In this document: positions 7,333-41,209 of the stretch, piece by piece | Layout: the number at the start of each line of letters is the position of its first letter | Numbering within the stretch: position 1 is the first letter of the stretch | NCBI GenBank assembly: GCA_963771045.1 | Contig: CAVYRW010000004.1 | Coordinates: 1,056,001 to 1,120,000 of the forward strand | Reading direction: 5' to 3' | Length of the DNA: 64,000 nt | Origin: Waddliaceae bacterium | GTDB lineage: Bacteria > Chlamydiota > Chlamydiia > Chlamydiales > SLFE01 | The notes under the pieces: generated by a model | Databases searched by the model: none | The model's input: only the letters and a program-made list of their open reading frames with translations | What the model was told of the DNA's origin: nothing | Position numbers and translations under genes: made by a program

Positions 7333-8376
7333 TCACGCACACCTCTCGAGGCTCGTTCCGAGCCCGACAAGGAGAGTGTTAATCGCAGCATTGTGATCGC
7401 GATCGTGTAGAATACCACATCCTGTACACTCCCATTGTCTTACCGACAAGCCTGATGTCCCTGTTGGGCCTGTTTTGGCCAAACAGTTCGAACAGGTCAT
7501 GGTGGAACCTTTGGAATCAACTTCGATGTACTTCCTACCGCCTGCACGGCACTTGTATGAGAGCATTTGGCGAAGTTGGTAGTGGCCGCTTTCCGCCACT
7601 GATTTCCCGTATTTCTTGGCTATCCCTTGGATATGATCTTTGCTAAAGGCAATCGTTTCGTATTCCTCAACAAGTTTCCGAGATAGCTTATGGTTGTCGT
7701 CTTTGCGACGATTTTTAATTCTTTCTTGCAATCTTGAGGTCAGCTTTTGCCTCTTTCCTCTTTGTGCCTGTGCTAGTCGGCTTTCTAATTGCTTTAATCG
7801 TTTTGGTTTCTGAATCTTTTTCCCGGTGGAGAGGGGTAATGTTGTCTTAAATCCCGGATCAATACCGATTTTTTTGTATCTTTTATGTGGTATAGCCTTC
7901 GGTTCTGCCTCGATAAATAGACAAAGATACCAACCTGATGCACGTTTAACAATACGACCACATTTGATCTTTCCTTGAGGAATTTCCTGTTTGTGAAAGC
8001 GAATCAACCCAATTCCCGGGAGTTTAAAGTACACGCCGTCTGGTCTTCTAATTGGATCAAGGAAAGGGATCGAGTTGAGACGGTTTCGACAACCTTTAAG
8101 CCTAGGCTTTTTCCCTAGCTTTTTAAAACATCGGCTCCAAGCATCCCAAGCGGTACATAGCATCCCTTGCAATGTGTGGGAGGGTATATCGAGTTTCTTT
8201 CCATGATTCGCTAGCAGATTCTGAAACTCTTTCTTGCTGTAGAAAATGCTGTCCTTTGCGTCGAGTTCGATTTTTCGGATTGCCCAATTCCAAACACGAG
8301 TCAAAATTAAAAGCCATTCGGAAAGAACTGCTTCTTGCTTAGATTTTACTCTTAATTTGATTTGGGTTTGAATCAT
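7333..8376 (-). CDS. tnpB: RNA-guided endonuclease TnpB family protein
   Basis: RuvC-I IGIDPG, zinc ribbon CSNC...CTGC, RuvC-III HDRDHNAA. ATGA overlap with tnpA. Confidence 0.93.
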   Translation of the reverse strand: MIQTQIKLRVKSKQEAVLSEWLLILTRVWNWAIRKIELDAKDSIFYSKKEFQNLLANHGKKLDIPSHTLQGMLCTAWDAWSRCFKKLGKKPRLKGCRNRLNSIPFLDPIRRPDGVYFKLPGIGLIRFHKQEIPQGKIKCGRIVKRASGWYLCLFIEAEPKAIPHKRYKKIGIDPGFKTTLPLSTGKKIQKPKRLKQLESRLAQAQRGKRQKLTSRLQERIKNRRKDDNHKLSRKLVEEYETIAFSKDHIQGIAKKYGKSVAESGHYQLRQMLSYKCRAGGRKYIEVDSKGSTMTCSNCLAKTGPTGTSGLSVRQWECTGCGILHDRDHNAAINTLLVGLGTSLERCA

Positions 8377-24036: not shown

Positions 24037-24660
24037 ATGTTGATACACAATGCTAAAGTTCGCCTGTCCCCGGGAAGGGGAATTGGCCTCTTTGCTACAG
24101 AAGATATACCTACGGGGACAGTCATCTGGTGTCCTTGCGATAAATGCGAATATTATGAAAAAGGGGTATTGGGTCACTGCTCCGATGAAATGGCTTTCAG
24201 GCTTGAAGAACATGGGTATTATCTTGTAAATGGCGATATTCTGATTCCCTGCCAAAATGCCTGTTACATGAATCACTCCTGCGAGGCGAATTGTTTGGAT
24301 TTCGGACTGGATTTTGGTCTTGCTGTCAAGCCGATAAAAAAAGACGAGGAAATTTTTTGCGATTATCGCAACTGGCAAAATGACCCTGATTGGGAATTTA
24401 ACTGCTGCTGTGGAACTGCCAGGTGTCAAAAAAAAATCAGTCCAAGGCATGGTGAAGCTCGTGATTTGCAGCAAGAATGGATGAGAAAACTTAATGGAGG
24501 ACTGAAGCAAATGGCATCAGTCCGGCAGGGACTTTTCGAAACATTGATAAGGTGCAGCCACCACTTCCCCCGGTTGATCCGCAACATCGGCCTGTTCGAT
24601 CACAAAACTGCTGTTACCGTTAGAGCGCCGCATTTCATCAAGGAAGGGGATAAGCTTTGA
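24037..24660 (+). CDS. SET domain protein-lysine methyltransferase with post-SET motif
   Basis: GxG motif GRGIGLFA, NHSCEANC, EEIFCDY and post-SET CCCGTARC. Confidence 0.9.
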   Translation: MLIHNAKVRLSPGRGIGLFATEDIPTGTVIWCPCDKCEYYEKGVLGHCSDEMAFRLEEHGYYLVNGDILIPCQNACYMNHSCEANCLDFGLDFGLAVKPIKKDEEIFCDYRNWQNDPDWEFNCCCGTARCQKKISPRHGEARDLQQEWMRKLNGGLKQMASVRQGLFETLIRCSHHFPRLIRNIGLFDHKTAVTVRAPHFIKEGDKL

Positions 24661-25761
24661 TACAAATCCTTCCTCTAGCGAATCTTTGTCTGTATTGACG
24701 GCATAAGAGAAAAAGATATGCTTTTCGTTTTCATTACGTGCGGGGAAATAGAGAATTCCGGCCTTAAAGCCCCATTGCTCTCCAACGGCCTGCCAAAAGC
24801 TGCACCCTTCCTGAAAACAAAGCTGCCAGATTCCCAGACTATAGCGGTACTCTTTAGCTTTAACAAGAGGGATTTTGTTATCAAAAGGATGAACGGGAAA
24901 ACAATGGCGTCGGCAATCATTTAGAAAATTTGTCTGAAAGATAAGGTTTCGAAATCCGATGAGAAGATCCTCAGGGGTACTTATCAGAGCTCCTGCCGAC
25001 CATTCGTCCCAACTGTCATCAACTAGGTCTGAGATATCAAGATAGTTTGAAACCGGAGATGTCGCAAACAAAGACACATTCAGCAAATTTATGGCGGCAT
25101 AGGCTCTGGCGATTTTTTCATTAAGGCTAATGTAAACCGAGCTTTTCGGCATTATCAGAGGTTCGGTCACATTATCCCTAACTGCCTCGATAAAGGGTTG
25201 TCCTGACAGCTCTTCGACAACGATGCCGAGTATTAAATAATTGAGGTTGGAATATTGGAAATCTTGACTCTCGTTATACTCACTATTGGCCAAAGCGAAT
25301 TCCACAAATGCCCAAGGCAAGATTGGTTTTTTTTTAAGTGAGGTGAACATTCGGAGGTAGGGAAATGTTTCCTGGAAATCGGGAAGGCCGGAAGTGTGGG
25401 TCAGAAGCTGCAATACGGTGATGTCTTTAAGGGGCGGGTATTTTTTGCATAATGTATCGAATCTTCCGCCCAATTCGTTTAATTTTGTTTGAATGGGTAA
25501 ATTTTTTCTTTGAAGAAGGTCAAAGACCAGAAAACCGGTGAATGTTTTGATCACACTGCCGCATTTGAACAAGGTGTCCGGCGTTATCTTTTCCTTGTTT
25601 CTGAGGTCGGCATAGCCTGCACAAAGTATTTCAGGGGGCTTGTCATTGACGGCGATAGCGGCGCAAACGCCCGGGGCATCAATACGCAATGTGAAATCGG
25701 CTGCCCGGCAAAGCAGCGCAGCCGATAAAAAGCATAAAATAAAGGGCAATCTTATTTTCAC
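24517..25761 (-). CDS. Secreted serine hydrolase (beta-lactamase-like / S12 peptidase family)
   Basis: GTG start and signal peptide; SxxK (GSVIK), LLTHTSGL, YSN, AGALIST. Last gene of the operon. Confidence 0.88.
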   Translation of the reverse strand: MKIRLPFILCFLSAALLCRAADFTLRIDAPGVCAAIAVNDKPPEILCAGYADLRNKEKITPDTLFKCGSVIKTFTGFLVFDLLQRKNLPIQTKLNELGGRFDTLCKKYPPLKDITVLQLLTHTSGLPDFQETFPYLRMFTSLKKKPILPWAFVEFALANSEYNESQDFQYSNLNYLILGIVVEELSGQPFIEAVRDNVTEPLIMPKSSVYISLNEKIARAYAAINLLNVSLFATSPVSNYLDISDLVDDSWDEWSAGALISTPEDLLIGFRNLIFQTNFLNDCRRHCFPVHPFDNKIPLVKAKEYRYSLGIWQLCFQEGCSFWQAVGEQWGFKAGILYFPARNENEKHIFFSYAVNTDKDSLEEGFVSKLIPFLDEMRRSNGNSSFVIEQADVADQPGEVVAAPYQCFEKSLPD

Positions 25762-25762
25762 C

Positions 25763-26995
25763 TTATGCGATAGCTCTCATTTTAAGCAGCTCAGTCAACA
25801 GTTTTTCACAAAGAGCTGTCTCGCTAAATGATGACAATACAACCTCTTCGCTTTTATTGAGTTTATCGATAAGCTCGATAAGTTCCTGATGGTTGTCCAT
25901 GCATTCACAATAGCCGTTTGCAGAAACAAAAAGCTGTCCGCTAGGCACTAGATCCCACATGATCGGAGCAGCCGAGCATTTTTTATAGGCACAGGAGGAT
26001 TCCAAACTGGCTTCGGCTTTTGGAGGAAGCCCCGCCACAGCGCAAGCTGTCTGGTGCATGATCCGCTGCTGATTCAGTTTGTCTTGGAAATCGAGGTTTT
26101 TGACAGCTTGGAAACAGTCATTGAGCTCTATAGACCAGCATTCCGAGGCGACTGTTTTATTCTCCTTGCCGAACTGATCCTTGATGGCCTCTTCAATCAC
26201 ATCCAATGTGACAGATTTTGCCCAGCCATCCATGTATACGGAGATATTGACGCACATGCAAAGCTCAGGAGAGCTTCCGACGTGCCAGTACAGTCCGGGG
26301 CAATAGGTAGCCTGGCCGGGGGCTGCGATAAAGGTTCCTCGATGTTCTTTTCTCCAGTTGATATCGCCTGTGCTTAGGTATTCTTCGGACCCTGTTGCAA
26401 GCTGGCCGATAGGGTTGTCTTCGGGCTTGGCAGCATGGGGAGGCCAGATGTAAAAATACTTATTACCGGAGATCGTAAAGTGGAAATTGTGGCAAGAGGC
26501 TCTGTGGATGCTTCCGGGTGTCTTAACATAGCGGCCTAAAAACATTTCCACATCGATGGATCCTTTGGGGATGCCGGTCTGCTGAATAAACGGGTATAAA
26601 AAGTGTTGTACGCGCTCTGTGAGGACCGGAGAGTATTGGGTAATCTGGTTGATAAAGATCATGAAGTCTTTATTTCCAGTCATCTGATCCAATCTGGAAA
26701 CAAAGCTTTCGAGGTTGGCATCTTCAGGGGAAGGGAGGTGCCTTTTGACCTGATGCAGCATTTGTTTAGAATCGACAAACATTTTCAGATCGGCGAACTT
26801 TCCTTTGTTTCGGTATTTTTCCGAAGCTTCAACCACGATATCAAAAATTTCTTGTTCCGTTGCCAGCGGGACCTGAAATTGCATCAGCTTCCCTTTTTGA
26901 CACCAAGTGGCATCGACAAATTCTTTCCAGCTCGATTCGTCAAGGCAGGGTCCTTCGATTTGATTCTTTTTTTCTGATTCAATAGCGCAAACCAT
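25763..26995 (-). CDS. JmjC/cupin-fold Fe(II)/2-oxoglutarate oxygenase-like protein
   Basis: FLGRY..TP..IH, GNKYFYIWP, PGQATYCPGLYWH cupin pattern with a winged-helix-like C-terminus; the metal motif reads HRA. Confidence 0.75.
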   Translation of the reverse strand: MVCAIESEKKNQIEGPCLDESSWKEFVDATWCQKGKLMQFQVPLATEQEIFDIVVEASEKYRNKGKFADLKMFVDSKQMLHQVKRHLPSPEDANLESFVSRLDQMTGNKDFMIFINQITQYSPVLTERVQHFLYPFIQQTGIPKGSIDVEMFLGRYVKTPGSIHRASCHNFHFTISGNKYFYIWPPHAAKPEDNPIGQLATGSEEYLSTGDINWRKEHRGTFIAAPGQATYCPGLYWHVGSSPELCMCVNISVYMDGWAKSVTLDVIEEAIKDQFGKENKTVASECWSIELNDCFQAVKNLDFQDKLNQQRIMHQTACAVAGLPPKAEASLESSCAYKKCSAAPIMWDLVPSGQLFVSANGYCECMDNHQELIELIDKLNKSEEVVLSSFSETALCEKLLTELLKMRAIA

Positions 26996-27004
26996 GTGTT
27001 TCTC

Positions 27005-28894
27005 CTATTTGTATAATGATATTTTTGTATTCTCGGAAATCCATGAGAGGCTGTTTTCCCACGATAGATCGGGAAAACCGAGCCGATCCCTTAATTGCTT
27101 AGAAAACTCGGGCATAATTGGGTAAAGACCTATGGCAAATTGTTTCAAAGCGAGCAGTTCCAACGAGACTTGGGTCGGGAAGGTCTCCGGATCGAGGGGG
27201 CTTACCTGATTGAGGTAATCGGCCAGCTGTTCCATAAATCCGGCGAGCGCCTCTGCGGCCTGCTTATTTGAGAATGACGCTGGAGTATAGCAGCTTCGAA
27301 TTTGTTTTCTAAAGAAAACCAATTCATTAAAGAATTGTCTGTCCCTTTCACTCCAGAGATAAGGTGAAGAAGCGGCGCCTCCCCAGGTTTCAAGATGTTT
27401 TTCTATGGATTTCAACGTCTCTTGCCATTTTCCGCATACGACCGTCTCAACAAATTCTTCGTATTGATTGACCGAAAAATTCGTGCGGCTCTGTTCCGGA
27501 CTTTGCAAAGAGAGATAAAACCGCGTCGGTTCTACAGTCTCTTCATTGATATGCGACAGCAGCCAGATGGCATGCTTGCGGCTTGTGGAGAATTTTTCGT
27601 TATCGAGTAAAAAGAATTCGTTTGAAATCAATCCAACTGGAAGCGCGCATGTGTTTAACGCCATAAAAATCGCGGGAAATAAAAAGCAGTTAAAAAAAGC
27701 ATTGTCCTTGCCGAAACATTGGATCAGTTTTTTATCCGGGTAGTGGGTTTCAGAGAAAAAGTGGTGGGCAAGACCCATTTCGAACCAAACAGAGATGACC
27801 TGACCGCTGTCTGCCGGCACAGGAACTCCCCAATCAAAGGGGAAGGAGACCGGATAATCAGGTAGAGGTTTTCTTAAGATCGATTGACACCAATTTCTAA
27901 GAGAGCTGTTCATTGGGCACTCCTGCAGAAATGTTTCGATTTTTTCTCTAAAAGGCTCAAGAGGAAAAAAGTATCTTTCTGTTTCAATCTTTTGAATGTC
28001 TCCCGAAGTCACTGTCGATTGAGGAGCGTCTATCTGCTGGCAATCATGGACATAGGCACACTCTTCGCAGAGATTGCCCCTGCAGCGAGCATGGCAATAG
28101 GGGCAAAAACCGGACAGGAAAGCTTCAAAAAGAAAAATGCCTTCTGAATCAATAAAACCCTCTTCTTTTCTTTTAACGAGTGTGCCCGATTGGCAGAGGG
28201 AGAGAAATCTCTTCTGAATTTGTTCTTGATAGCCTAGTATCGCATCCGGTTTTGTAAAACGGTCCAATTCGACTTTGCTTTGGGCAAGAGCCTCTTCGAT
28301 ACGTCTTCCGAATTGCTTAGCCGTTTCTTTGTTTGAGATCTTAAGATCGCGAGCCTTTTGAGCGGTATAGCTTTGATGGTCGTCTTGTCCTGTTTGATGG
28401 ACGGCATGGGTACCTTCAAGAAGCATCCCTCTTCTTAAGATATCAGCCCTCAAATAGGGGCCGCTTAAATGGCCAAGATGAAGATCGCCGTTTGGAGTTG
28501 GGGGAGTCGATGTAATGACATAGTCAAAAGCCTGCTGTTTTGTAGCGCCCTTTTCAAACCAGTTCATATCTTCCCACCAAAGGCTTAAGAAAACTAGGGA
28601 CGAATCATTTGCTGTGTTTGTCACAGAATGCTCTTCAAAGGGAAGGAATTGCATGATTGCGTTTGAGTTAAACGGAAGCCTTTTTTTACCGGATCTTACC
28701 TCGCCCTTGCCTTGAAGGTGGATAAATATCTCGCAGTCATGGTGGATATGGGCAGAGGTCGTCTCGCCTGGCTGCAGGACGAGATACGCGGCTTTCATCG
28801 GGGGACTTGGTTTCTCCAGCCCGAATTCAATCTTTTGAAACCCGGCGTTGAAAAGCCGCTTACATTCTTTAGGGCAAAGTTTTATTTCCTGCAT
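27005..28894 (-). CDS. Cupin / methionyl-tRNA-synthetase-like fusion (hydrazine synthetase, Spb40/Tri28/PyrN type)
   Basis: N-terminal cupin HIHHDCE...PFEEH...LSLWW. MetRS-like HIGH motif PTPNGDLHLGH, zinc knuckle CPYC...CEEC, KMSKS variant KFSTS. Clustered with a Lys N6-hydroxylase and an FAD oxidase. Confidence 0.9.
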   Translation of the reverse strand: MQEIKLCPKECKRLFNAGFQKIEFGLEKPSPPMKAAYLVLQPGETTSAHIHHDCEIFIHLQGKGEVRSGKKRLPFNSNAIMQFLPFEEHSVTNTANDSSLVFLSLWWEDMNWFEKGATKQQAFDYVITSTPPTPNGDLHLGHLSGPYLRADILRRGMLLEGTHAVHQTGQDDHQSYTAQKARDLKISNKETAKQFGRRIEEALAQSKVELDRFTKPDAILGYQEQIQKRFLSLCQSGTLVKRKEEGFIDSEGIFLFEAFLSGFCPYCHARCRGNLCEECAYVHDCQQIDAPQSTVTSGDIQKIETERYFFPLEPFREKIETFLQECPMNSSLRNWCQSILRKPLPDYPVSFPFDWGVPVPADSGQVISVWFEMGLAHHFFSETHYPDKKLIQCFGKDNAFFNCFLFPAIFMALNTCALPVGLISNEFFLLDNEKFSTSRKHAIWLLSHINEETVEPTRFYLSLQSPEQSRTNFSVNQYEEFVETVVCGKWQETLKSIEKHLETWGGAASSPYLWSERDRQFFNELVFFRKQIRSCYTPASFSNKQAAEALAGFMEQLADYLNQVSPLDPETFPTQVSLELLALKQFAIGLYPIMPEFSKQLRDRLGFPDLSWENSLSWISENTKISLYK

Positions 28895-29895
28895 AAAGCT
28901 ACCTGCTGGGTAAAATGGTTTTTTATCCGGTTGGCAAGGGCCGGAGCCAGACGGTATCCGGACCCCGACCCTGCTGTGACGGCTATGCGCCGGCCGGAGT
29001 CATCGACCTGAAAAACAGCGGGAGTAAAATCCTTGCTGTAGGCGTCGCAAAAGACGCGTCCTCCCATGACATTTGCCGCCATTTTTTTGCAATAGCGCGA
29101 CAAAATTGCTCGTCCCGATTGGAGAATTTTTTCGTTAAGGAAAAATTGTTCGGTTGGAAGGCAGTCCCATTGGCAGAGGGTAAAGCTGAATTTCCATTGA
29201 TTTGATTGGTAATCGGGAAGGAGGAAGGCGTCATCATCAAAGAAATAATAAAGAGGTGTCGTTTCATTTAATCGGATATCCGAGGCAATATGCAAACAGG
29301 CGATTTTTTTTGTCCGGATCCCTTTTGTTTTTTGTGTAAGCCAAGGGCCTGTCGCTTCGATGACTCTTTCACTGTTGATAACAGATTGCAAAGAGTTGAA
29401 GATATAGCCGTTTTCACAGGATTCGACATTAAAAACCGGCGTGCCTTCAAAAATTTGGACGCCCTGTTTTTTCAGCCAGAGAGCCAGCTCTTTGCATGTC
29501 GCGTAGACATCGCCGGAATAGGCTGCCGCACCTTTCAAATGAAGGCGATTGAACTTGCCTTCTATGGGAGCGTCCAACTCTGCTAAGACAGCTTTTTTTG
29601 CCTCTTCAAGACTATTGGAGGAAACGACAACGCTTAAAGGATGATGCCTGATATCGAGTTCGGGAACAATTGACTTGAGTTTTTTCCACTGCTCGATGCT
29701 TTCTAAAGTCAATCGCCTCTTTTCCTCTGTGCGTCCGATCGGGAAGTCGACGCCGAGTGAATATAGACTGGCGCCCGTACCGACTAAAGATTTTTCAAAA
29801 ATCGCTATAGTCCAATCGGGCCTTTCGGCTTTAATCATTGCAGCGGAAGTCAACCCAATGATGCCGCCGCCGATAACAGAAAGATCCAACTTCAT
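28882..29895 (-). CDS. FAD-dependent oxidoreductase (D-amino acid oxidase-like; Spb39/Tri27 type)
   Basis: VIGGGIIG, GTGASLYS.G, ATGPW, FCDAYS, AGSGSGYRLAPALA. Confidence 0.88.
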   Translation of the reverse strand: MKLDLSVIGGGIIGLTSAAMIKAERPDWTIAIFEKSLVGTGASLYSLGVDFPIGRTEEKRRLTLESIEQWKKLKSIVPELDIRHHPLSVVVSSNSLEEAKKAVLAELDAPIEGKFNRLHLKGAAAYSGDVYATCKELALWLKKQGVQIFEGTPVFNVESCENGYIFNSLQSVINSERVIEATGPWLTQKTKGIRTKKIACLHIASDIRLNETTPLYYFFDDDAFLLPDYQSNQWKFSFTLCQWDCLPTEQFFLNEKILQSGRAILSRYCKKMAANVMGGRVFCDAYSKDFTPAVFQVDDSGRRIAVTAGSGSGYRLAPALANRIKNHFTQQVALCRK

Positions 29896-29910: not shown

Positions 29911-31200
29911 TTACACAATCGGCTCGAGTACGGGGTGCTGATGCGCCCTTTCTTTTGAGCTGCTGTGAAGAGGATAAATTTCTTGTCCGCATAAGCTATT
30001 GACAATCATAGCCGACCGCCATGCCATCAAACTTAAATTGGCATCGGCAACACCTCGACAATGCCGCGATCCATTCTGGATATAGATTTTGGCTTTGTCG
30101 GTATAATCCCATTGAACGGAGTAATCCTCGTTAGTCTGTAAATGGCCGTCTTCTGTAGATGAAATATATTCTTGCAGAGATTTTAAATAAGTAGGAAACT
30201 CCCAGCGGTATCCTGTACTCAGGATAACATAATCAACAAGGCGGGAAGACTGGTTTTTTTCAAGGATATTGTAATAAGAAACATTCCATTGATCTTCTTC
30301 TTTTTCGATTTTGTTGACTTGGGTATTGGTATGGATTTCGAGTCCCTTCCATCCATCACGGAATTTTAACTGATACCACCTCTGATAGAGGTCTCTCAGA
30401 AGTTCGTCGTTGATTCCGTCGCTTGCCAATTTATGTTGATTGAGCAGGATTTTTTTGACGTCTCTTTCCTTGAGGAAAAATTGCTCGACATAATTGGGAG
30501 TGAACCAATCATTGGCAAACGGGGAGTCATCAAGGGGGGCCAGATGGCTTCTGCGGGTGAGCCAGCAGAGACTCTCCGGGAGGGCATCGTTTGATGACAA
30601 GATGTCATTGACGATCTCAGCCCCTGTCTGGCCTCCACCTACAACAATTGCTCTTCGCCCTTTTAAATCGGGCTTGATCTCAAGAAAGCGGCTGGCATGG
30701 AACATGGTTTTTTGCGAAGACGGCAGGTGAAATGATGGAATGTTTGGGGCAAGTCCGGTGCCAATTACAATATGCCGCGATTTCACAAATTTATCCTGAT
30801 AAAAAATATGAAAATAAGGCTCGTGAAACTCCACTTTCTTTACCTTTGAGTCAAAACATATATTATCCACCGAATTGCAGACCCATTGTAGATACTGTTC
30901 AAACTCCCACCTCCTGGGGGTTTCAAACTTGGCATTAAGATGGGTATAAAAGCGGTTGTGGCGCTTGAGGAAATTCAAAAAACTATAAGGACTCATCGGA
31001 TCGACCAAAGTGACAAGGTCTTTCAAATAGGAAACTTGTAAATTGGAATTGGGAAAGAGAAGCCCCGGATGCCAGGAAAAAGTTTCTTTGGCCTCTAAAA
31101 ACAGCGAATTAACCTGTTTAACAGGATGCAAAAGGGCCGCAAGACTTAAATTGAAGGGGCCGACGCCTATACCTACCAGATCATAAAGTTTTTGACCCAT
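29911..31200 (-). CDS. L-lysine N6-monooxygenase (IucD/SidA family)
   Basis: GIGVGPFNLSLAAL, FSWHPG, LQVSYLKDLVT, VVGGGQTGAE, STGY, HCRGVADANLSLMAWRS. Confidence 0.95.
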   Translation of the reverse strand: MGQKLYDLVGIGVGPFNLSLAALLHPVKQVNSLFLEAKETFSWHPGLLFPNSNLQVSYLKDLVTLVDPMSPYSFLNFLKRHNRFYTHLNAKFETPRRWEFEQYLQWVCNSVDNICFDSKVKKVEFHEPYFHIFYQDKFVKSRHIVIGTGLAPNIPSFHLPSSQKTMFHASRFLEIKPDLKGRRAIVVGGGQTGAEIVNDILSSNDALPESLCWLTRRSHLAPLDDSPFANDWFTPNYVEQFFLKERDVKKILLNQHKLASDGINDELLRDLYQRWYQLKFRDGWKGLEIHTNTQVNKIEKEEDQWNVSYYNILEKNQSSRLVDYVILSTGYRWEFPTYLKSLQEYISSTEDGHLQTNEDYSVQWDYTDKAKIYIQNGSRHCRGVADANLSLMAWRSAMIVNSLCGQEIYPLHSSSKERAHQHPVLEPIV

Positions 31201-31202
31201 AA

Positions 31203-32264
31203 TCAGCTTCTCCTTTCAAGCAAAGGGGGATAACGATGAATTTTTCCGTTGTAATCTTCTACAACATACGATTCATGCTTATCGTCTGTTGAGAGTTCCT
31301 TCAAATAGTTGGGATTGATAGGAACCTTGCCAAAACCGCCCGGAAGATCCAATGCATAAGTTGGCTGGCAAAGGCCCGAAAGTCTGCCCCTTATTTTTTT
31401 TAGCAATTGCTGCCCTTCTTCAATAGTTGTCCTGAAATGAGACGTCCCCTTGGCATAGTCGCCATGGTGAAGGTAATAAGGTTTGATCCTGTTTTTGACG
31501 AGCGCCCTAAACAGGTTTTCCAGCTTAACGGGGTCATCATTGATTCCTTTGAGAAGGACGCTTTGGCTGAGCATAGGAATACCTGATTCTACTATCCTGG
31601 CGATTGCCTTTTTGGACTTGTCGATAAACTCTTTTGCATGGTTGGTGTGGAGTATAATATAAAGAGCTTTATCGGTTTTCAATGCTTCTAGCATCTCATC
31701 AGAGATGCGGTCAGAGTCGACTATCGGAACGCGGGTGTGTATTCTGATCACTTCCACATGATCAATTGACGATAAACGGGTGATGATTTGCTTGATCATG
31801 CTCGGAGGCATAAAGAGAGGGTCCCCGCCGGTAAGAATGACTTCCCAGATTTCCTCAGTGTTTTGAATATACTCGAAAGCGGCGTCCAGTTCCTTTCGGT
31901 TCAATCCCGATTTGGCAGATCCTACCTTTTCTCTCCTGAAACAGAAGCGGCAATAGACAGGACATACAGTCATAGGAAGAAAGAGGCAGCGGTCAGGATA
32001 CCTGTGCACAATCCCTTTGACGGGACTGCGTGCGTTATCCCCGATGGGATCGGCCAGTTCTTCTTGTTTTACAGATAACTCTTTGGCATTGGGGACAAAT
32101 TGAGCGGATATAGGATCATCGTCATTATTGATATCGATCAATCCTGCCATCTGATCAGTAATTGATAAGGAAAAGCGATCGACAACTTGCTTGAGTTCGC
32201 TGACTTTTTCTTCTGGAATAATTCCTAAGTCATGCAGCTCATCAACTTTCTTAATTTTACCCAT
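31203..32264 (-). CDS. KamA-family radical SAM protein (lysine 2,3-aminomutase-like)
   Basis: VHRYPDR, CxxxCxxC (CPVYCRFC), TGGDP, QSVLLKGIND, PYYLH, PLP-lysine motif PGGFGK. Confidence 0.93.
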   Translation of the reverse strand: MGKIKKVDELHDLGIIPEEKVSELKQVVDRFSLSITDQMAGLIDINNDDDPISAQFVPNAKELSVKQEELADPIGDNARSPVKGIVHRYPDRCLFLPMTVCPVYCRFCFRREKVGSAKSGLNRKELDAAFEYIQNTEEIWEVILTGGDPLFMPPSMIKQIITRLSSIDHVEVIRIHTRVPIVDSDRISDEMLEALKTDKALYIILHTNHAKEFIDKSKKAIARIVESGIPMLSQSVLLKGINDDPVKLENLFRALVKNRIKPYYLHHGDYAKGTSHFRTTIEEGQQLLKKIRGRLSGLCQPTYALDLPGGFGKVPINPNYLKELSTDDKHESYVVEDYNGKIHRYPPLLERRS

Positions 32265-32288: not shown

Positions 32289-33593
32289 TCATTGGTGCAA
32301 TACCGCCCCTTCCATTTTTAGGAAACGTTTTTCGATATCAAAAGCCTCTTCCAAAAGGTTGGAAAAAATGATATATCGTATTTTATTGTCAAGATGAATG
32401 GTATTCGAATGAATAAGAACACCTGTTTTTGTTTCGGGATTGAACGCGATATTTTCATTTTCGATATATTCTAGAACACTCTCAAAGGTTATATCGCCGT
32501 TAGCAACCGCGGCATCCTGCACCCAGCAGGTATGCGGATAATAGTCAGGATCAACCAATCTTCTGGCTAGATAATCAATGAATGTTCCTGCAGTGCGCCT
32601 AAAATTGGACTCGGTCGCAAAAAACTGGCCTTGATCATCCAGGCAGCAGTCGACATCGCAAATTCCTCTAAATCCAAGACTGTGCAGATAATTGCCAAAT
32701 CTTAAGCCGACATCGGAAAGCCTATTCTGCTGGTTATGGTCAATTGTATTTGGCGGCGTGACCATACCGCTGTAAGCGGCGCCTGGACATCTTTGGTCGC
32801 AGATATATAAAATATGCGGCCCCTGCTCTGTTACCTCGATTTCAACACTTGGCAACGCGGTAAAATTAACGAACTGCTCAACGATAAAACGGAATGGCTG
32901 GCTTGAGTAGCATGACAAGTTCTTCTCGAGCAATGCAAGAACAGTCGTGTTTTTAATATCCTCCTTGCCGATGATGACATGGCCGTAGCCGTTTGAACTT
33001 CTGTCGAATTTAATGATCACTTTGTCTGAGGAACAAAGCAGTTTTTCAACATTGGCAGCAAGATCCTGCAGACCGGAACAGAAACATCCTTTGACAGTCG
33101 GAATGCCAAGTTTATGCATCAACTTGCGGAAACCGGATTTTGTGTTGATGTCATAAAAGGCTTCCATGAGTTCGCGGGAAGGAAATTCCTTGTATCCCCA
33201 AATCGGAGATCCAACTTCCCATGCCAATGAAAGCGTTGGACGGTCCGAAGCAAAGGGGAGTAGAGAGGCATCCCGGTGATGTTTGACATAATCTCCCATC
33301 TTCTCGAAGGTATCGTCCATGCGGACGCGGTGGGCGAGAAGATCGGTCAATTCCCCTTTAGGAGTCAAGGTTTTGACTTTATCGGGGTTGATTCCAATTG
33401 TTTTGGCCACATACTTTTTAAAAACAGGATCGATAGGCACAGGTGTCACGATAAGGTCGTTTTCGTTTGCAATCCACATCTTTCTCGGCGTGATAGCCGA
33501 CATCGCTTTGGCATAGCGCATTGTCGGTATCTCAATCATCAGCTCGTTAACGACGTTGGCAAATATTATCCACGGTTTTCGATTGGTATTCAT
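32289..33593 (-). CDS. preATP-grasp / PGM1-like ATP-grasp peptide ligase
   Basis: IIFANV, NTKSGFR, IIKFDRSSNGYG, IVEQFV, GFRGICDVD, ESNFR ATP-grasp motifs. Confidence 0.85.
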   Translation of the reverse strand: MNTNRKPWIIFANVVNELMIEIPTMRYAKAMSAITPRKMWIANENDLIVTPVPIDPVFKKYVAKTIGINPDKVKTLTPKGELTDLLAHRVRMDDTFEKMGDYVKHHRDASLLPFASDRPTLSLAWEVGSPIWGYKEFPSRELMEAFYDINTKSGFRKLMHKLGIPTVKGCFCSGLQDLAANVEKLLCSSDKVIIKFDRSSNGYGHVIIGKEDIKNTTVLALLEKNLSCYSSQPFRFIVEQFVNFTALPSVEIEVTEQGPHILYICDQRCPGAAYSGMVTPPNTIDHNQQNRLSDVGLRFGNYLHSLGFRGICDVDCCLDDQGQFFATESNFRRTAGTFIDYLARRLVDPDYYPHTCWVQDAAVANGDITFESVLEYIENENIAFNPETKTGVLIHSNTIHLDNKIRYIIFSNLLEEAFDIEKRFLKMEGAVLHQ

Positions 33594-33602
33594 GATTTTC
33601 TC

Positions 33603-34343
33603 CTACTTTTTAAATCCGCCGTAAACAGCATGCCCTGCGCTTGCCCAAAAGACTTCGATAGAAGCAAAGCCCGCCTCTTCCAGCCACTTGAGCTGGTCAT
33701 AAAGGCTCGATGGTTTGTCAATGGGATCATTTTCAGCATTCGGATCGGAATAGTAATTCCACTCGGTTCTTTTAAATGCCTCGTAAGCAGATTCGCTGCC
33801 GAAAATTTCCAGCGAACGTTTTTGAGTTTCCTCATCCCAGTTATCTGCGAAAATCTTTTTTGATTCCGGAGAGTTAGGGTACATGAGATCGGCGATAATC
33901 AATGCCCCTCCGGGTTCTAACTGGCCATAGAGATCTTTAAAGAGGGCCTTTTTCTGCGCCGCATCTAAATGATGGACCGCCAGTGAAGAAACAAAAGCAT
34001 GGACAGGCTGGGGGAATGTTCTCCACTCCATTTCGGCAAGGTCGAATTGTTTGACTTCGATCCTATCGGAATACTCTTTGTTTTTTCTTTTAGTTTCGTC
34101 TAGCATTTTTTGGCTTAGATCCATTCCCCATACTGTTGCCTTTGGAATGTTTTCTAAAAGCGCTTTGCAAGTATCTCCGGAGCCGCAGCAAAGCTCGACA
34201 ATAATGCCTTTTTTTTCCATTTTGGGAATGGCTTTTATGAGAATTTCAATTTGCCTTTCTTTTTGCGGAACAAAGCAATCGCCATATTTGATAAAGATTT
34301 CACTCTCATCTTCAGTCCATTTGTTTTCCGTTGTTTCGTTCAT
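33603..34343 (-). CDS. Class I SAM-dependent methyltransferase
   Basis: Motif I VELCCGSG, GMDLSQKML, SSLAVHHL, LEPGGALIIAD. GGAGGT RBS before the ATG at 34343. Confidence 0.93.
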   Translation of the reverse strand: MNETTENKWTEDESEIFIKYGDCFVPQKERQIEILIKAIPKMEKKGIIVELCCGSGDTCKALLENIPKATVWGMDLSQKMLDETKRKNKEYSDRIEVKQFDLAEMEWRTFPQPVHAFVSSLAVHHLDAAQKKALFKDLYGQLEPGGALIIADLMYPNSPESKKIFADNWDEETQKRSLEIFGSESAYEAFKRTEWNYYSDPNAENDPIDKPSSLYDQLKWLEEAGFASIEVFWASAGHAVYGGFKK

Positions 34344-34371
34344 GCTGACTACCTCCATTTTTTACATGACG

Positions 34372-34719: not shown

Positions 34720-34917
34720 ATGAGCAAACGAAATTGTCCAAAATGCGAGTCGAAAGCGATCAAAAAAAATGGCTTTACAAGACACGGAAAACAAAATCAC
34801 CGCTGCCTTGATTGCGGGCGTCAATTTTCCTTGGAACCGAGCGATGAAGACTTTCAGGAATTTCTAAATCCGCAAATTCACGAGGAAACTTACATCAGCT
34901 GTAAAATCGTCGATTAA
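34720..34917 (+). pseudogene. IS1-type InsA zinc-ribbon fragment
   Basis: CPKC...KKNG...GKQNHRCLDCGRQF is homologous to the N-terminus of the IS1 transposase at 43709, then diverges. No TIRs seen. Confidence 0.7.
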
Positions 34918-38677: not shown

Positions 38678-41209
38678 ATGAACAAGATAAACACATTGAA
38701 CAATTCTAAAAATTTGTCTAGAAATCATCAATCTTTTTCGGGTAATCCGGACAAATTTACCGCAGTCATTCGTAGAATGAATGAAGGAGAACTTGCGGAA
38801 ACCAATTGCGTTTGGATGAGTGCAAAAGATATGCAGCGATATTTTCCGGAGCAAAACGAAGATAATGCTGCCTTTGCGAGAATTGCCAACCGCGTTTACC
38901 GCATTGCCGAAAAATCGTGGATAAAACCGGGTGAAATCGGATTGAATCCGGTTCAATTCGAAGAAGTGTCTGCCGTTATCAATAAAGATGATACTGTCCT
39001 TATAACACCCTATAGGCAGAACCCTGCCTGCCGCCGGGACTTAACGGAAGCAAAATTCATCATATCGCCGCAAAGTCTGGATGATACCGTATCAATTAGT
39101 CAAAACATCCTCGACTTGGGCGAGATTAAAAACTACTTTCATCAGCATTATGAGGGGCATTTTCTTAAAGAAGGACAGGTTCTTCACTGCAATTTTAACA
39201 ACCGAGAATTTTTCGCCACATTTCATTCAGGCGAGGCGCATCAAACTCCTGAAAACAAACTTTTTTTTAGTACAATTATACCAACGACTGAATTATTTTT
39301 TGAAACTGTTGAAACCTCTCCTTACATTTTAAGCGAAAAGACAAATACTATTGAACAGCCGACATTTAAATTCGATGTCTTGATAACGGGACTCGATAAT
39401 TATCCCGATACCACGCGCCCTCTTATCTATAATGTGGAAAAGTTTGAGGAGAAGGTTAGGCTTGCGTTGCAAAACGAGTGGCTTGTCCCCGGCATGTTTG
39501 TCGAATACTCCATTGCAGCAGGGGTTAATATCAAAGTTATTTTAAAAGAAACCCTATTGCCTAAAAAAAACGTCCAGCTTGCAAGAAAAGGAGCTGTCTA
39601 TACAAAAGCTTACCGCCTAACCCCGGAGGCCAAACTCGAATTTATTTCCGATAATGCAGATGTATGCGGCGTCAGAGGGGAGCCTCTTAAGCCGAAGCGG
39701 GTCACATTTCGAATCTGCATGATTGACTCTCTTCCCGGTTTAGATTCCATGCAGGAAGATATTAGCAATTGGATCAACGTATCCGAAGTGGGTCAAAAAA
39801 TCAGGGAATCGATAGACCTCTTTTCGGCAAACACGAAATTTTTTGTCGAACATGAGGGGTATCTTCTGAATTTGGAAATCTTTGCTATCGATAATGAAGA
39901 TCTCGTTAAGCACGATTCCGTCAATATGAAGCATTGGGAATTGTCTGATGATACGCGGATCTTTCTCAATTTAAAAAACGGCATCGACCTCAATCTCATT
40001 CCCGATACGAAAACACATTCGCTGAAAAAAATGACTGTGTATATTTCGACTAAAAAAACCCAGAAAAACATTGAACTTACCGAAGTGGATTTGGATGCCT
40101 TAAAGCAGGCAATTAAAGACTATCTTCCCATAGAGAGGTGCCTCAATCAGAAATTTACAGTTGATTTAGGGGGTGATCTTCTCCTCGACGTCAAGGTTAA
40201 AAATATGGCATTCAAAACAAGCAGATATAACGGAACGATTTATCCCCACCTTGGAAAAACAACATCCGACACTGAATTGGCTATTGAATACGATAACTAT
40301 CAAATCTGGATGAGCCACAAGCCGAATATCATAAGATTTAAAAACGGCGATGCCCGCCAAACTCTAGAAGAAGCCGGTTTGACAGGGCTGCCTGATGAAA
40401 TCGTCGAAGCTTTCGAACTCATTGCATACCCTTTGGGAGAATTAAGAGAATTAGCAAAAAAAATGAAAATCAAGTCACCCAATGGACTACTTCTCTATGG
40501 TGCTCCGGGAACGGGAAAAACCACATTTGCCAACGCTCTTGGAAAACTTCTGGATGTGACCAAGGACAATATCGTACAAGTCAAGCATGCCAACCTGCTT
40601 AGCAAGTGGGTCGGAGAGACTGAAAAAAATGTTAAAGCACTATTCGATAAAGCCCATAATAATAAAGATCAAAGGTTCATTGTCATCTTTGATGAGATCG
40701 AATCTCTTTGCGAAAAACGATCGAGAACGACAAGCTCCCCAAGAGCCAGCCTGGTAAACACTTTGCTTGAAGAAATGAGCTCTGCGCAGGATCTCGACAA
40801 TCTCATTGTTATCGGAACGACCAACCAGCTAGAGAGGATCGACGAGGCCTTCTTAAGACCGGGACGTTTTAGTGAAAAAATCGAATTTCCTCTGCCGGAT
40901 GCAGCGGGAAGGAAAAAAATCCTGGAATACTATATCAAGGACTTGCAAGAAGAAGAGGTCATCGAAGATGATATCGACCTTGACCGATTTGCGGCTGCCG
41001 CAAAAGACTTCTCGGGAGACCACTTAAAAGGGCTTGTTAAGAAAGCATCGAAATTGCGTCTGAGAAAGCTCGCTTCACTTAAACTCACAAAGGAGCAGGC
41101 CGAAAAACATCCTGATCGAAAGATCACAAACGCCGATTTTCTGGAGGCATTCGATAGCGTCAAGCCGCTAGTAGCAGGAAACGCTCCACCTGTCCACATG
41201 TATGTTTAA
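38678..41209 (+). CDS. NSF/Cdc48-like AAA+ ATPase with a single AAA module; paralogue of 16329-19595
   Basis: GAPGTGKT, SKWVGETE pore loop, VIFDEIE, DEAFLRPGR. The N-terminus (TNCVW..RIANRVY..W.K.G..GL) is shared with the paralogue; GGAGGT RBS. Confidence 0.87.
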   Translation: MNKINTLNNSKNLSRNHQSFSGNPDKFTAVIRRMNEGELAETNCVWMSAKDMQRYFPEQNEDNAAFARIANRVYRIAEKSWIKPGEIGLNPVQFEEVSAVINKDDTVLITPYRQNPACRRDLTEAKFIISPQSLDDTVSISQNILDLGEIKNYFHQHYEGHFLKEGQVLHCNFNNREFFATFHSGEAHQTPENKLFFSTIIPTTELFFETVETSPYILSEKTNTIEQPTFKFDVLITGLDNYPDTTRPLIYNVEKFEEKVRLALQNEWLVPGMFVEYSIAAGVNIKVILKETLLPKKNVQLARKGAVYTKAYRLTPEAKLEFISDNADVCGVRGEPLKPKRVTFRICMIDSLPGLDSMQEDISNWINVSEVGQKIRESIDLFSANTKFFVEHEGYLLNLEIFAIDNEDLVKHDSVNMKHWELSDDTRIFLNLKNGIDLNLIPDTKTHSLKKMTVYISTKKTQKNIELTEVDLDALKQAIKDYLPIERCLNQKFTVDLGGDLLLDVKVKNMAFKTSRYNGTIYPHLGKTTSDTELAIEYDNYQIWMSHKPNIIRFKNGDARQTLEEAGLTGLPDEIVEAFELIAYPLGELRELAKKMKIKSPNGLLLYGAPGTGKTTFANALGKLLDVTKDNIVQVKHANLLSKWVGETEKNVKALFDKAHNNKDQRFIVIFDEIESLCEKRSRTTSSPRASLVNTLLEEMSSAQDLDNLIVIGTTNQLERIDEAFLRPGRFSEKIEFPLPDAAGRKKILEYYIKDLQEEEVIEDDIDLDRFAAAAKDFSGDHLKGLVKKASKLRLRKLASLKLTKEQAEKHPDRKITNADFLEAFDSVKPLVAGNAPPVHMYV

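Follow-up and report, generated by a model that had tools for sequence, protein, structure and literature searches.

The locus described here raises the question of whether a JmjC-type Fe(II)/2-oxoglutarate (2OG) oxygenase that lacks the carboxylate of its metal site acts as a halogenase. The gene lies in the window, i.e., the whole stretch of 64,000 nucleotides that was analysed, from a chlamydia-like bacterium. A preliminary description of this DNA had noted HxA in place of the HxD/E motif and had proposed a candidate halogenase. As judged from sequence comparison, we favor the reading that the enzyme is a radical chlorinase whose target is C5 of either beta-lysine or deoxynegamycin, with a rough probability of 0.6.

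The open reading frame at 25763-26995 on the minus strand encodes 410 amino acids, and its translation holds ...TPGSIHRASCHNFHF...GNK...W and ...CPGLYWHVG. At window positions 26498-26506, the plus strand reads ggctctgtg. Its reverse complement, CAC AGA GCC, encodes His164-Arg165-Ala166, which confirms that HxA replaces HxD/E. The distal His of YWH, described earlier as retained, is His238. The HxD/E...H facial triad is absent from the protein, which reads H164-x-A166...H238, and the 2His-1Ala/Gly motif of radical halogenases is present. K179, N170, and N250, which we take to be the 2OG-binding residues from FIH numbering and from a pairwise alignment with JMJD7, are kept and are invariant across the HxA clade. 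In that alignment with Drosophila JMJD7 (7yxg), a weak match (E 0.27), HRA falls on HKD.

The protein matches the Pfam family Cupin_8 (1.5e-6, over the curated cut-off). An AlphaFold2 model made from a 143-row alignment has a mean pLDDT of 92.5, and NO66 and YcfD, both ribosomal oxygenases, match it best in Foldseek (E about 1e-14). In a VIA structure comparison, Z scores were 18.1 for 4csw and 18.0 for 4lit, whereas two halogenases, OocPQ and HalB, reached about 11. The best ROXA match (Z 18.1) has an rmsd of 5.7 over 337 aligned residues, and YcfD and NO66 score 18 and 17. A search of the PDB sequences with the 143-row profile gave 51 matches, namely YxbC, YcfD, FIH, JMJD5/7, MINA, NO66, and one unrelated designed protein, with no halogenase among them. 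Because the Pfam match, the predicted model, its structural neighbours, and the PDB profile matches agree, the protein is assigned to the JmjC enzymes of predicted ROXA architecture without the facial-triad carboxylate. The likeness to the ROXA family (YcfD, NO66, MINA53) extends over the whole chain of the predicted fold, comprising the JmjC and C-terminal domains. However, identity is 9-14%, and the ROXA members are HxD protein hydroxylases, whereas the window protein is encoded by a small-molecule pathway gene and lacks the carboxylate. A housekeeping YcfD role was rejected because a search of 60 relatives did not find the gene, and 399 further genomes from the phylum gave a single distant match.

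The known radical halogenases (SyrB2, WelO5, BesD/HalB, CurA, AspX, and BtnX) share the 2His-1Ala/Gly motif and a fold of the double-stranded beta-helix type with the window protein. AspX, in the accessible text on it, also shares a free amino-acid context with an ATP-grasp ligase. These enzymes belong, however, to another subfamily, and in the window protein 2OG would bind to a JmjC-type Lys. Kinship with the BesD/HalB or SyrB2/CurA families was considered and rejected, since neither appears among the 51 PDB matches and the Z score is about 11, versus 18 for YcfD. BesD is thus an analogy and not a relative. The ESM Atlas gave nothing beyond unnamed JmjC clusters.

Is Ala166 an accident of this genome? 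A phmmer search against 1.84 billion representative sequences returned 928 hits, the best 150 of which were examined. In the 150-row alignment (self included), the metal-ligand column, which is the Ala column, holds D in 102 rows, E in 27, G in 16, and A in 5. The preliminary description had suggested alignment with homologues as a check, and the three closest among the 928 hits, P0002 (45% identical), P0003 (39%), and P0004 (36%), all read H-R-A and not D/E. An IQ-TREE phylogeny was inferred from 46 of 166 rows with the motif column taken out. The four H-R-A proteins group at UFBoot 100 and SH-aLRT 77, so that the node is not fully starred, and the HxD protein P0005 is the sister of this clade (99/92). 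P0097, the remaining one of the five HxA proteins, is instead sister to the HxE enzyme encoded in an Aquimarina cluster (100/100). Members of the four-protein clade are only 31-43% identical to one another, and H164 and H238 are invariant among them, as are the three presumed 2OG binders.

In all 166 aligned rows, the 21 proteins without D/E carry G or A without exception, and each of the 21 keeps H164, H238, and K/R179. The minimum number of switches to G/A is 6 on a weakly supported FastTree, and about 5-6 among the best 150 homologues. The chance that five single-base replacements would all give G or A is roughly 0.01-0.02, a figure that speaks against random decay and is silent on the choice between a halogenase and a two-His hydroxylase. 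P0004 uses the codon GCT, which is consistent with an old Asp-to-Ala change. Since Ala is fixed across so divergent a clade, a single-base decay from GAC, as had been offered as an alternative, is unlikely. By these comparisons, Ala166 is unlikely to be a recent decay and is a real, conserved feature of a probably functional enzyme.

It had also been suggested that nearby Cys or His residues supply the missing ligand. This is unlikely because the same residues occur in carboxylate-bearing relatives: C168 is found in 39 of 43 HxE rows and H172 in 37 of 43. As further substitute ligands, C232, C246, and C248 are likewise improbable by sequence, being present in the HxD sister P0005, and so is H169, which is variable and occurs in two of the four HxA clade members. 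In the second sphere, the aligned rows show no clear change common to all A/G lineages.

Other searches covered less ground. Word-indexed homologue searches returned the protein itself, or itself and P0097, and missed the phmmer relatives, so they are silent on rarity. Among the matches listed in a metagenome scan were one close relative (L002, the same protein as P0004) and two distant fragments. A plasmid search found distant members alone, 21% identical at best and mostly from Ralstonia, and the one that was read is HxD. On a Ralstonia solanacearum plasmid record (L025:7646-11250), the gene of this distant HxD member comes after a 77-aa ORF that contains three nearly identical repeats, and before genes for an MFS transporter and a methyltransferase. 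The arrangement has a RiPP-type look and was matched in 107 Ralstonia records. The wider family also contains sixteen HxG members in at least three lineages, all of which keep both His residues and the Lys and are further halogenase candidates (P0021, P0036, P0038, P0046, P0053, P0057, P0061-63, P0085, P0095, P0107, P0109, P0127, P0140, and P0141). No characterised HxG enzyme was found in the plasmid search.

The JmjC gene is the seventh of an eight-gene minus-strand operon, which is convergent with a SET gene. Gaps within the operon range from -13 to 24 nt. The JmjC gene is full length, with flanking gaps of 1 and 9 nt. A class I SAM methyltransferase (33603-34358; Methyltransf_25; 37% to its Kitasatospora purpeofusca counterpart) comes first. 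It is followed by a preATP-grasp/ATP-grasp ligase (32289-33593; PF18604 and PF18105; 32% to the counterpart) and a lysine 2,3-aminomutase-like radical SAM enzyme (31203-32264; TIGR03822, over cut-off; 52%). The next three genes encode a Spb38-like lysine N6-monooxygenase (29911-31200; PF13434, 2e-103), a Spb39-like FAD-dependent oxidoreductase (28882-29895; PF01266), and a Spb40-like cupin-MetRS hydrazine synthetase (27005-28894; Cupin_2 and tRNA-synt_1g). The JmjC gene then precedes the last operon gene, which encodes a beta-lactamase-fold serine hydrolase with a hydrophobic N-terminus (24517-25761; PF00144; 27%). The SET-domain protein of the negamycin-locus type (24037-24660, plus strand; PF00856) is 32-46% identical to the SET genes of 15 of 18 compared loci. 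The SET gene shares 144 nt with the 3' end of the hydrolase gene, and its role may be tailoring or self-protection. No precursor-like ORF is apparent upstream of the operon. A promoter and terminator scan was near chance (24 versus 16.8 +/- 4.2, and 9 versus 12.9).

The N-hydroxylase, flavin oxidase, and cupin-MetRS resemble the Spb38/Spb39/Spb40 cassette (s56-p1, azaserine, and FuzDEFG). The pocket of the synthetase reads T130, P131, D171, Q174, W370, M373, N398, and N402. With positions assigned from the spacing of motifs and no Spb40 sequence in the comparison, seven of these eight residues agree with the Spb40/AzsN code TPDQWMNH, the last position being N. The eight-residue code is that given in the accessible text of PMC12376268. 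Because of the 7/8 match, hydrazinoacetate is the likely unit made by the trio. Unlike in the known cassettes, the trio is joined here to a negamycin core, for which K. purpeofusca uses NegJ and nitrite according to the accessible literature. As for a NegJ/nitrite route in the window, no unassigned large gene was found in the operon, and the Spb38-40-type trio stands in its stead.

How close is this operon to the negamycin loci? When 185,579 species genomes were scanned by motif, 18 loci were obtained, and the oxygenase of each reads H-x-E. Methyltransferase, ATP-grasp, and SET genes occur together in 15 of the 18, and with the aminomutase in 14. The same hydrazine trio as in the window is present in two, from Aquimarina and Streptomyces manipurensis. 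Another is from K. purpeofusca NRRL B-1817. The accessible text of a preprint names this strain as a producer of negamycin and states that the cluster encodes lysine hydroxylation (bioRxiv 2025.05.27.656397). In the available part of a second preprint, neg2 comprises ten genes, 8066-8075, including the aminomutase 8074 and the KinJ homologue 8066, and deletion of 8071-8075 abolished negamycin (bioRxiv 2025.07.31.667836). The order of locus L009 matches neg2: hydrolase, aminomutase, JmjC, methyltransferase, ATP-grasp, and SET, then FemAB-like, alpha/beta-hydrolase, MFS, and a large unannotated ORF. Among the 13 ORFs scanned in the K. purpeofusca locus, the JmjC is the sole recognisable oxygenase. 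By elimination, it would therefore be the enzyme that installs the C5 hydroxyl, and gene-order mapping places it as the third gene, putatively negC.

The aminomutase, oxygenase, methyltransferase, preATP-grasp, SET, and serine hydrolase genes are all found together in the window, whose cluster is, by its gene content and sequence, of the negamycin type. These six core genes share 27-52% identity with the neg2 locus (negA-negJ), and the oxygenase pocket residues are shared as well. The window JmjC is the positional counterpart of the negamycin-locus oxygenase in a comparison of the loci. However, the neg2 oxygenase is H-x-E and that of the window H-x-A. Compared with neg2 (L009), the window also lacks the FemAB-like, alpha/beta-hydrolase, MFS, and NegJ-position genes, and its host is chlamydia-like.

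Identity to the K. purpeofusca JmjC is 20-28%. Nine positions conserved in the orthologues (K71, E150, G161, R165, C168, H172, E204, Y206, and Y254) are all kept in each of the four HxA clade members, and 13 of 15 cluster rows score nine, whereas the 102 HxD rows mostly have 0-3. These positions were chosen by eye from the same alignment, and the comparison is descriptive and not an independent test. P0004 is the sole clade neighbour with DNA, i.e., one of three relatives, and its gene (L002) adjoins a lysine N-hydroxylase and an FAD oxidase.

Several of the compared loci have features of their own. Those of Aquimarina sp. RZ0 (L010:3727-15028) and S. manipurensis (L021:7893-18329) combine a negamycin-type core and a Spb38-40-type cassette with HxE oxygenases. 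In the Aquimarina locus, the JmjC is short (233 aa), and a carbamoyltransferase and an acyl-CoA dehydrogenase are encoded nearby. The closest relative of this JmjC, P0097, is HxA, a second independent switch. In the Dictyobacter arantiisoli locus (L013:3986-13658), genes for a nitric oxide synthase oxygenase and for a C-N hydrolase come after a negamycin-type core, and a 645-aa gene without annotation lies upstream. This arrangement may supply the N-N bond in a third way.

The proposed pathway would run as follows. The aminomutase would make beta-lysine, and the Spb38/40/39-type trio would convert lysine and glycine to hydrazinoacetate. The methyltransferase would N-methylate the hydrazine unit, and the ATP-grasp enzyme would link it to beta-lysine as a beta-lysyl hydrazide, giving deoxynegamycin. 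In the JmjC enzyme, chloride would occupy the vacant position on the iron. The Fe(IV)-oxo species would then take a hydrogen from C5, either of beta-lysine or of deoxynegamycin, and chlorine would rebound. The product would be 5-chloro-5-deoxynegamycin or its beta-lysine precursor, with Cl where negamycin has OH. Its likely role would be chemical defence of the niche of an intracellular bacterium. In the actinomycete pathway, the FemAB-like gene probably caps the C6 amine. Since the window cluster lacks such a gene, the Cl would be next to an uncapped amine, and ring closure to an aziridine could follow. If true, this closure would turn a ribosome binder into a reactive compound.

Halogenation is argued here from the motif, its conservation, and the operon context, and known enzymes lend it plausibility. 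In the accessible text of Kipouros & Chang (PMC13489965), all reported Fe/2OG radical halogenases are 2His-1Gly/Ala, both tested 2His-Gly/Ala candidates chlorinated, and Gly-to-Asp/Glu changes in BtnX led to hydroxylation. It speaks against halogenation that conversion of a lysine hydroxylase to a halogenase needed 14 changes, as stated in the accessible part of PMC11611013. A broader reading would make the protein a founding member of a class of radical halogenases with the JmjC/ROXA fold, which arose at least twice from the negamycin C5-hydroxylase lineage, and its product a chlamydial 5-chloro-5-deoxynegamycin with possible aziridine closure. Taken jointly, these parts fall a little short of an even chance, and the reading is tentative.

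The earlier halogenase proposal gains from the Ala of the three closest homologues and is weakened by FIH D201G, a variant of the same fold that is still a hydroxylase. The main rival is a two-His hydroxylase like FIH D201G, with water, chloride, or substrate in the vacant site and OH rebound, in which case the cluster product, made via hydrazinoacetate, would be negamycin or a near analogue. This is a serious possibility, although well behind the chlorinase. In the accessible text of PMC3045019, FIH D201G keeps hydroxylation, but D201A, the exact analogue of the window enzyme, is hydroxylase-defective. AspH, with two His only, hydroxylates without halogenation, and its authors hold that other factors decide the outcome (PMC6817910, accessible text). 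A hydroxylase would also explain why the pocket residues of the orthologues are kept, and the G/A-only pattern fits it equally well. Selection might favor OH, because negamycin became less active when H, F, NH2, or OCH3 took the place of its C5 OH, as given in the available portion of PMC12797225. On the other hand, repeated fixation of G/A and its long retention in the clade would call for some benefit, which an impaired hydroxylase does not provide, and the natural 2His-Gly/Ala enzymes in the accessible text of Kipouros & Chang halogenated.

The remaining readings are much less probable than the hydroxylase. The enzyme might have another radical outcome, such as desaturation or ring closure, or act on a carbon or substrate other than C5 of beta-lysine. 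The distance of the HxA clade from the actinomycete orthologues (20-24% aligned identity) and the repeat-peptide neighbour of the wider family member L025 would suit this improbable case, and the genomic context that was read covers one of the three clade relatives, P0004. The window operon, however, has every negamycin-core partner and no apparent upstream precursor-like ORF, and the pocket signature is common to the orthologues. Slightly more improbable still is an inactive or decaying enzyme in a cluster that makes a deoxy compound. FIH D201A is dead as a hydroxylase in its accessible description, deoxynegamycin keeps much activity (2- to 4-fold lower; PMC12797225, accessible text), and a change of a single base, GAY to GCY, leads from the Asp of the sister to Ala. 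Yet the four clade members, at 31-43% identity, all keep both His residues, K179, N170, and N250. The gene is also of full length with little space to its operon neighbours, and the AlphaFold model is confident (pLDDT 92.5). That GCC is an assembly error for GAC is very improbable. One public sequencing run, X1, contained 25% of the sequence words, with no RNA run among those listed. The contigs of X1 leave the codon uncovered, but 14 of them elsewhere on the cluster are 99%+ alike with no differences listed, and a base-call error is unlikely because three independent proteins carry H-R-A.

Radical halogenases and negamycin clusters are already known kinds. New here are a natural HxE/HxA pair in one pathway type, a predictable substrate, and the intracellular lineage. 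In the accessible part of the Kipouros & Chang atlas, JmjC candidates are predicted halogenases and known as predictions alone. The table of its Fig. 1c mentions JmjC 105 times, and cluster 8 consists of bacterial JmjC proteins of 390-440 aa (PMC13489965). Of 11 'Chlamyd' rows in the accessible atlas, the two listed are algae. In the open literature, which lacks most subscription papers and includes the accessible part of PMC2938197, no validated JmjC halogenase was found. Among the literature matches listed, likewise from the open literature, no relevant report of a chlorinated negamycin or a chlamydial negamycin was found. A 2025 review, in its accessible text, names no C5 replacements other than H, F, NH2, and OCH3 (PMC12797225).

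Radical halogenases are uncommon and in demand. Engineered two-His variants of JmjC enzymes are known not to be simple halogenases. The negamycin loci and the window together provide a natural matched pair, in which H-x-E enzymes with a known hydroxylated product are set against H-x-A in the same cluster type, so that substrate, position, and outcome are predictable and testable with one protein. Such a pair bears on what beyond an open iron site decides between chlorination and hydroxylation. If the enzyme is a chlorinase, the product would be an undescribed chlorinated relative of negamycin from an environmental chlamydia-like bacterium, and possibly a halogenated analogue of an antibiotic that acts on Gram-negative bacteria and causes stop-codon readthrough. 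The operon also places a complete pathway of the antibiotic type in a lineage of obligate intracellular bacteria.

The host genome contains five TLC nucleotide transporters, an Hc1 histone-like gene, and a weak OMP6 match below the cut-off, which point to an environmental chlamydia. Because the JmjC gene was not found in the 60 relatives, horizontal acquisition is suggested as the simplest reading, and it would have occurred some time ago. The one distant match in the 399 other genomes of the phylum is an ordinary Cupin_8 protein. The GC content of the cluster (0.448) equals that of the contig (0.446). Just upstream of the cluster, at window 34720-34917 on the plus strand, is an InsA-like zinc-ribbon fragment of 65 aa with a weak Pfam match below the cut-off.

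A cupin-MetRS hydrazine synthetase 33-35% identical in sequence and with another pocket code is encoded in a genome of the same order (L036:1-13581; G227:C2). It adjoins an NRPS-like gene and genes for an AMP-binding enzyme, an acyltransferase, and two methyltransferases, and no match to the window N-hydroxylase was found within 20 kb. The window also encodes two AAA ATPases, of 1088 aa (16329-19595) and 843 aa (38678-41209), both on the plus strand. They have long, related-looking N-terminal regions with no listed Pfam family, and their architecture is presumably reminiscent of NSF/Cdc48-type proteins.
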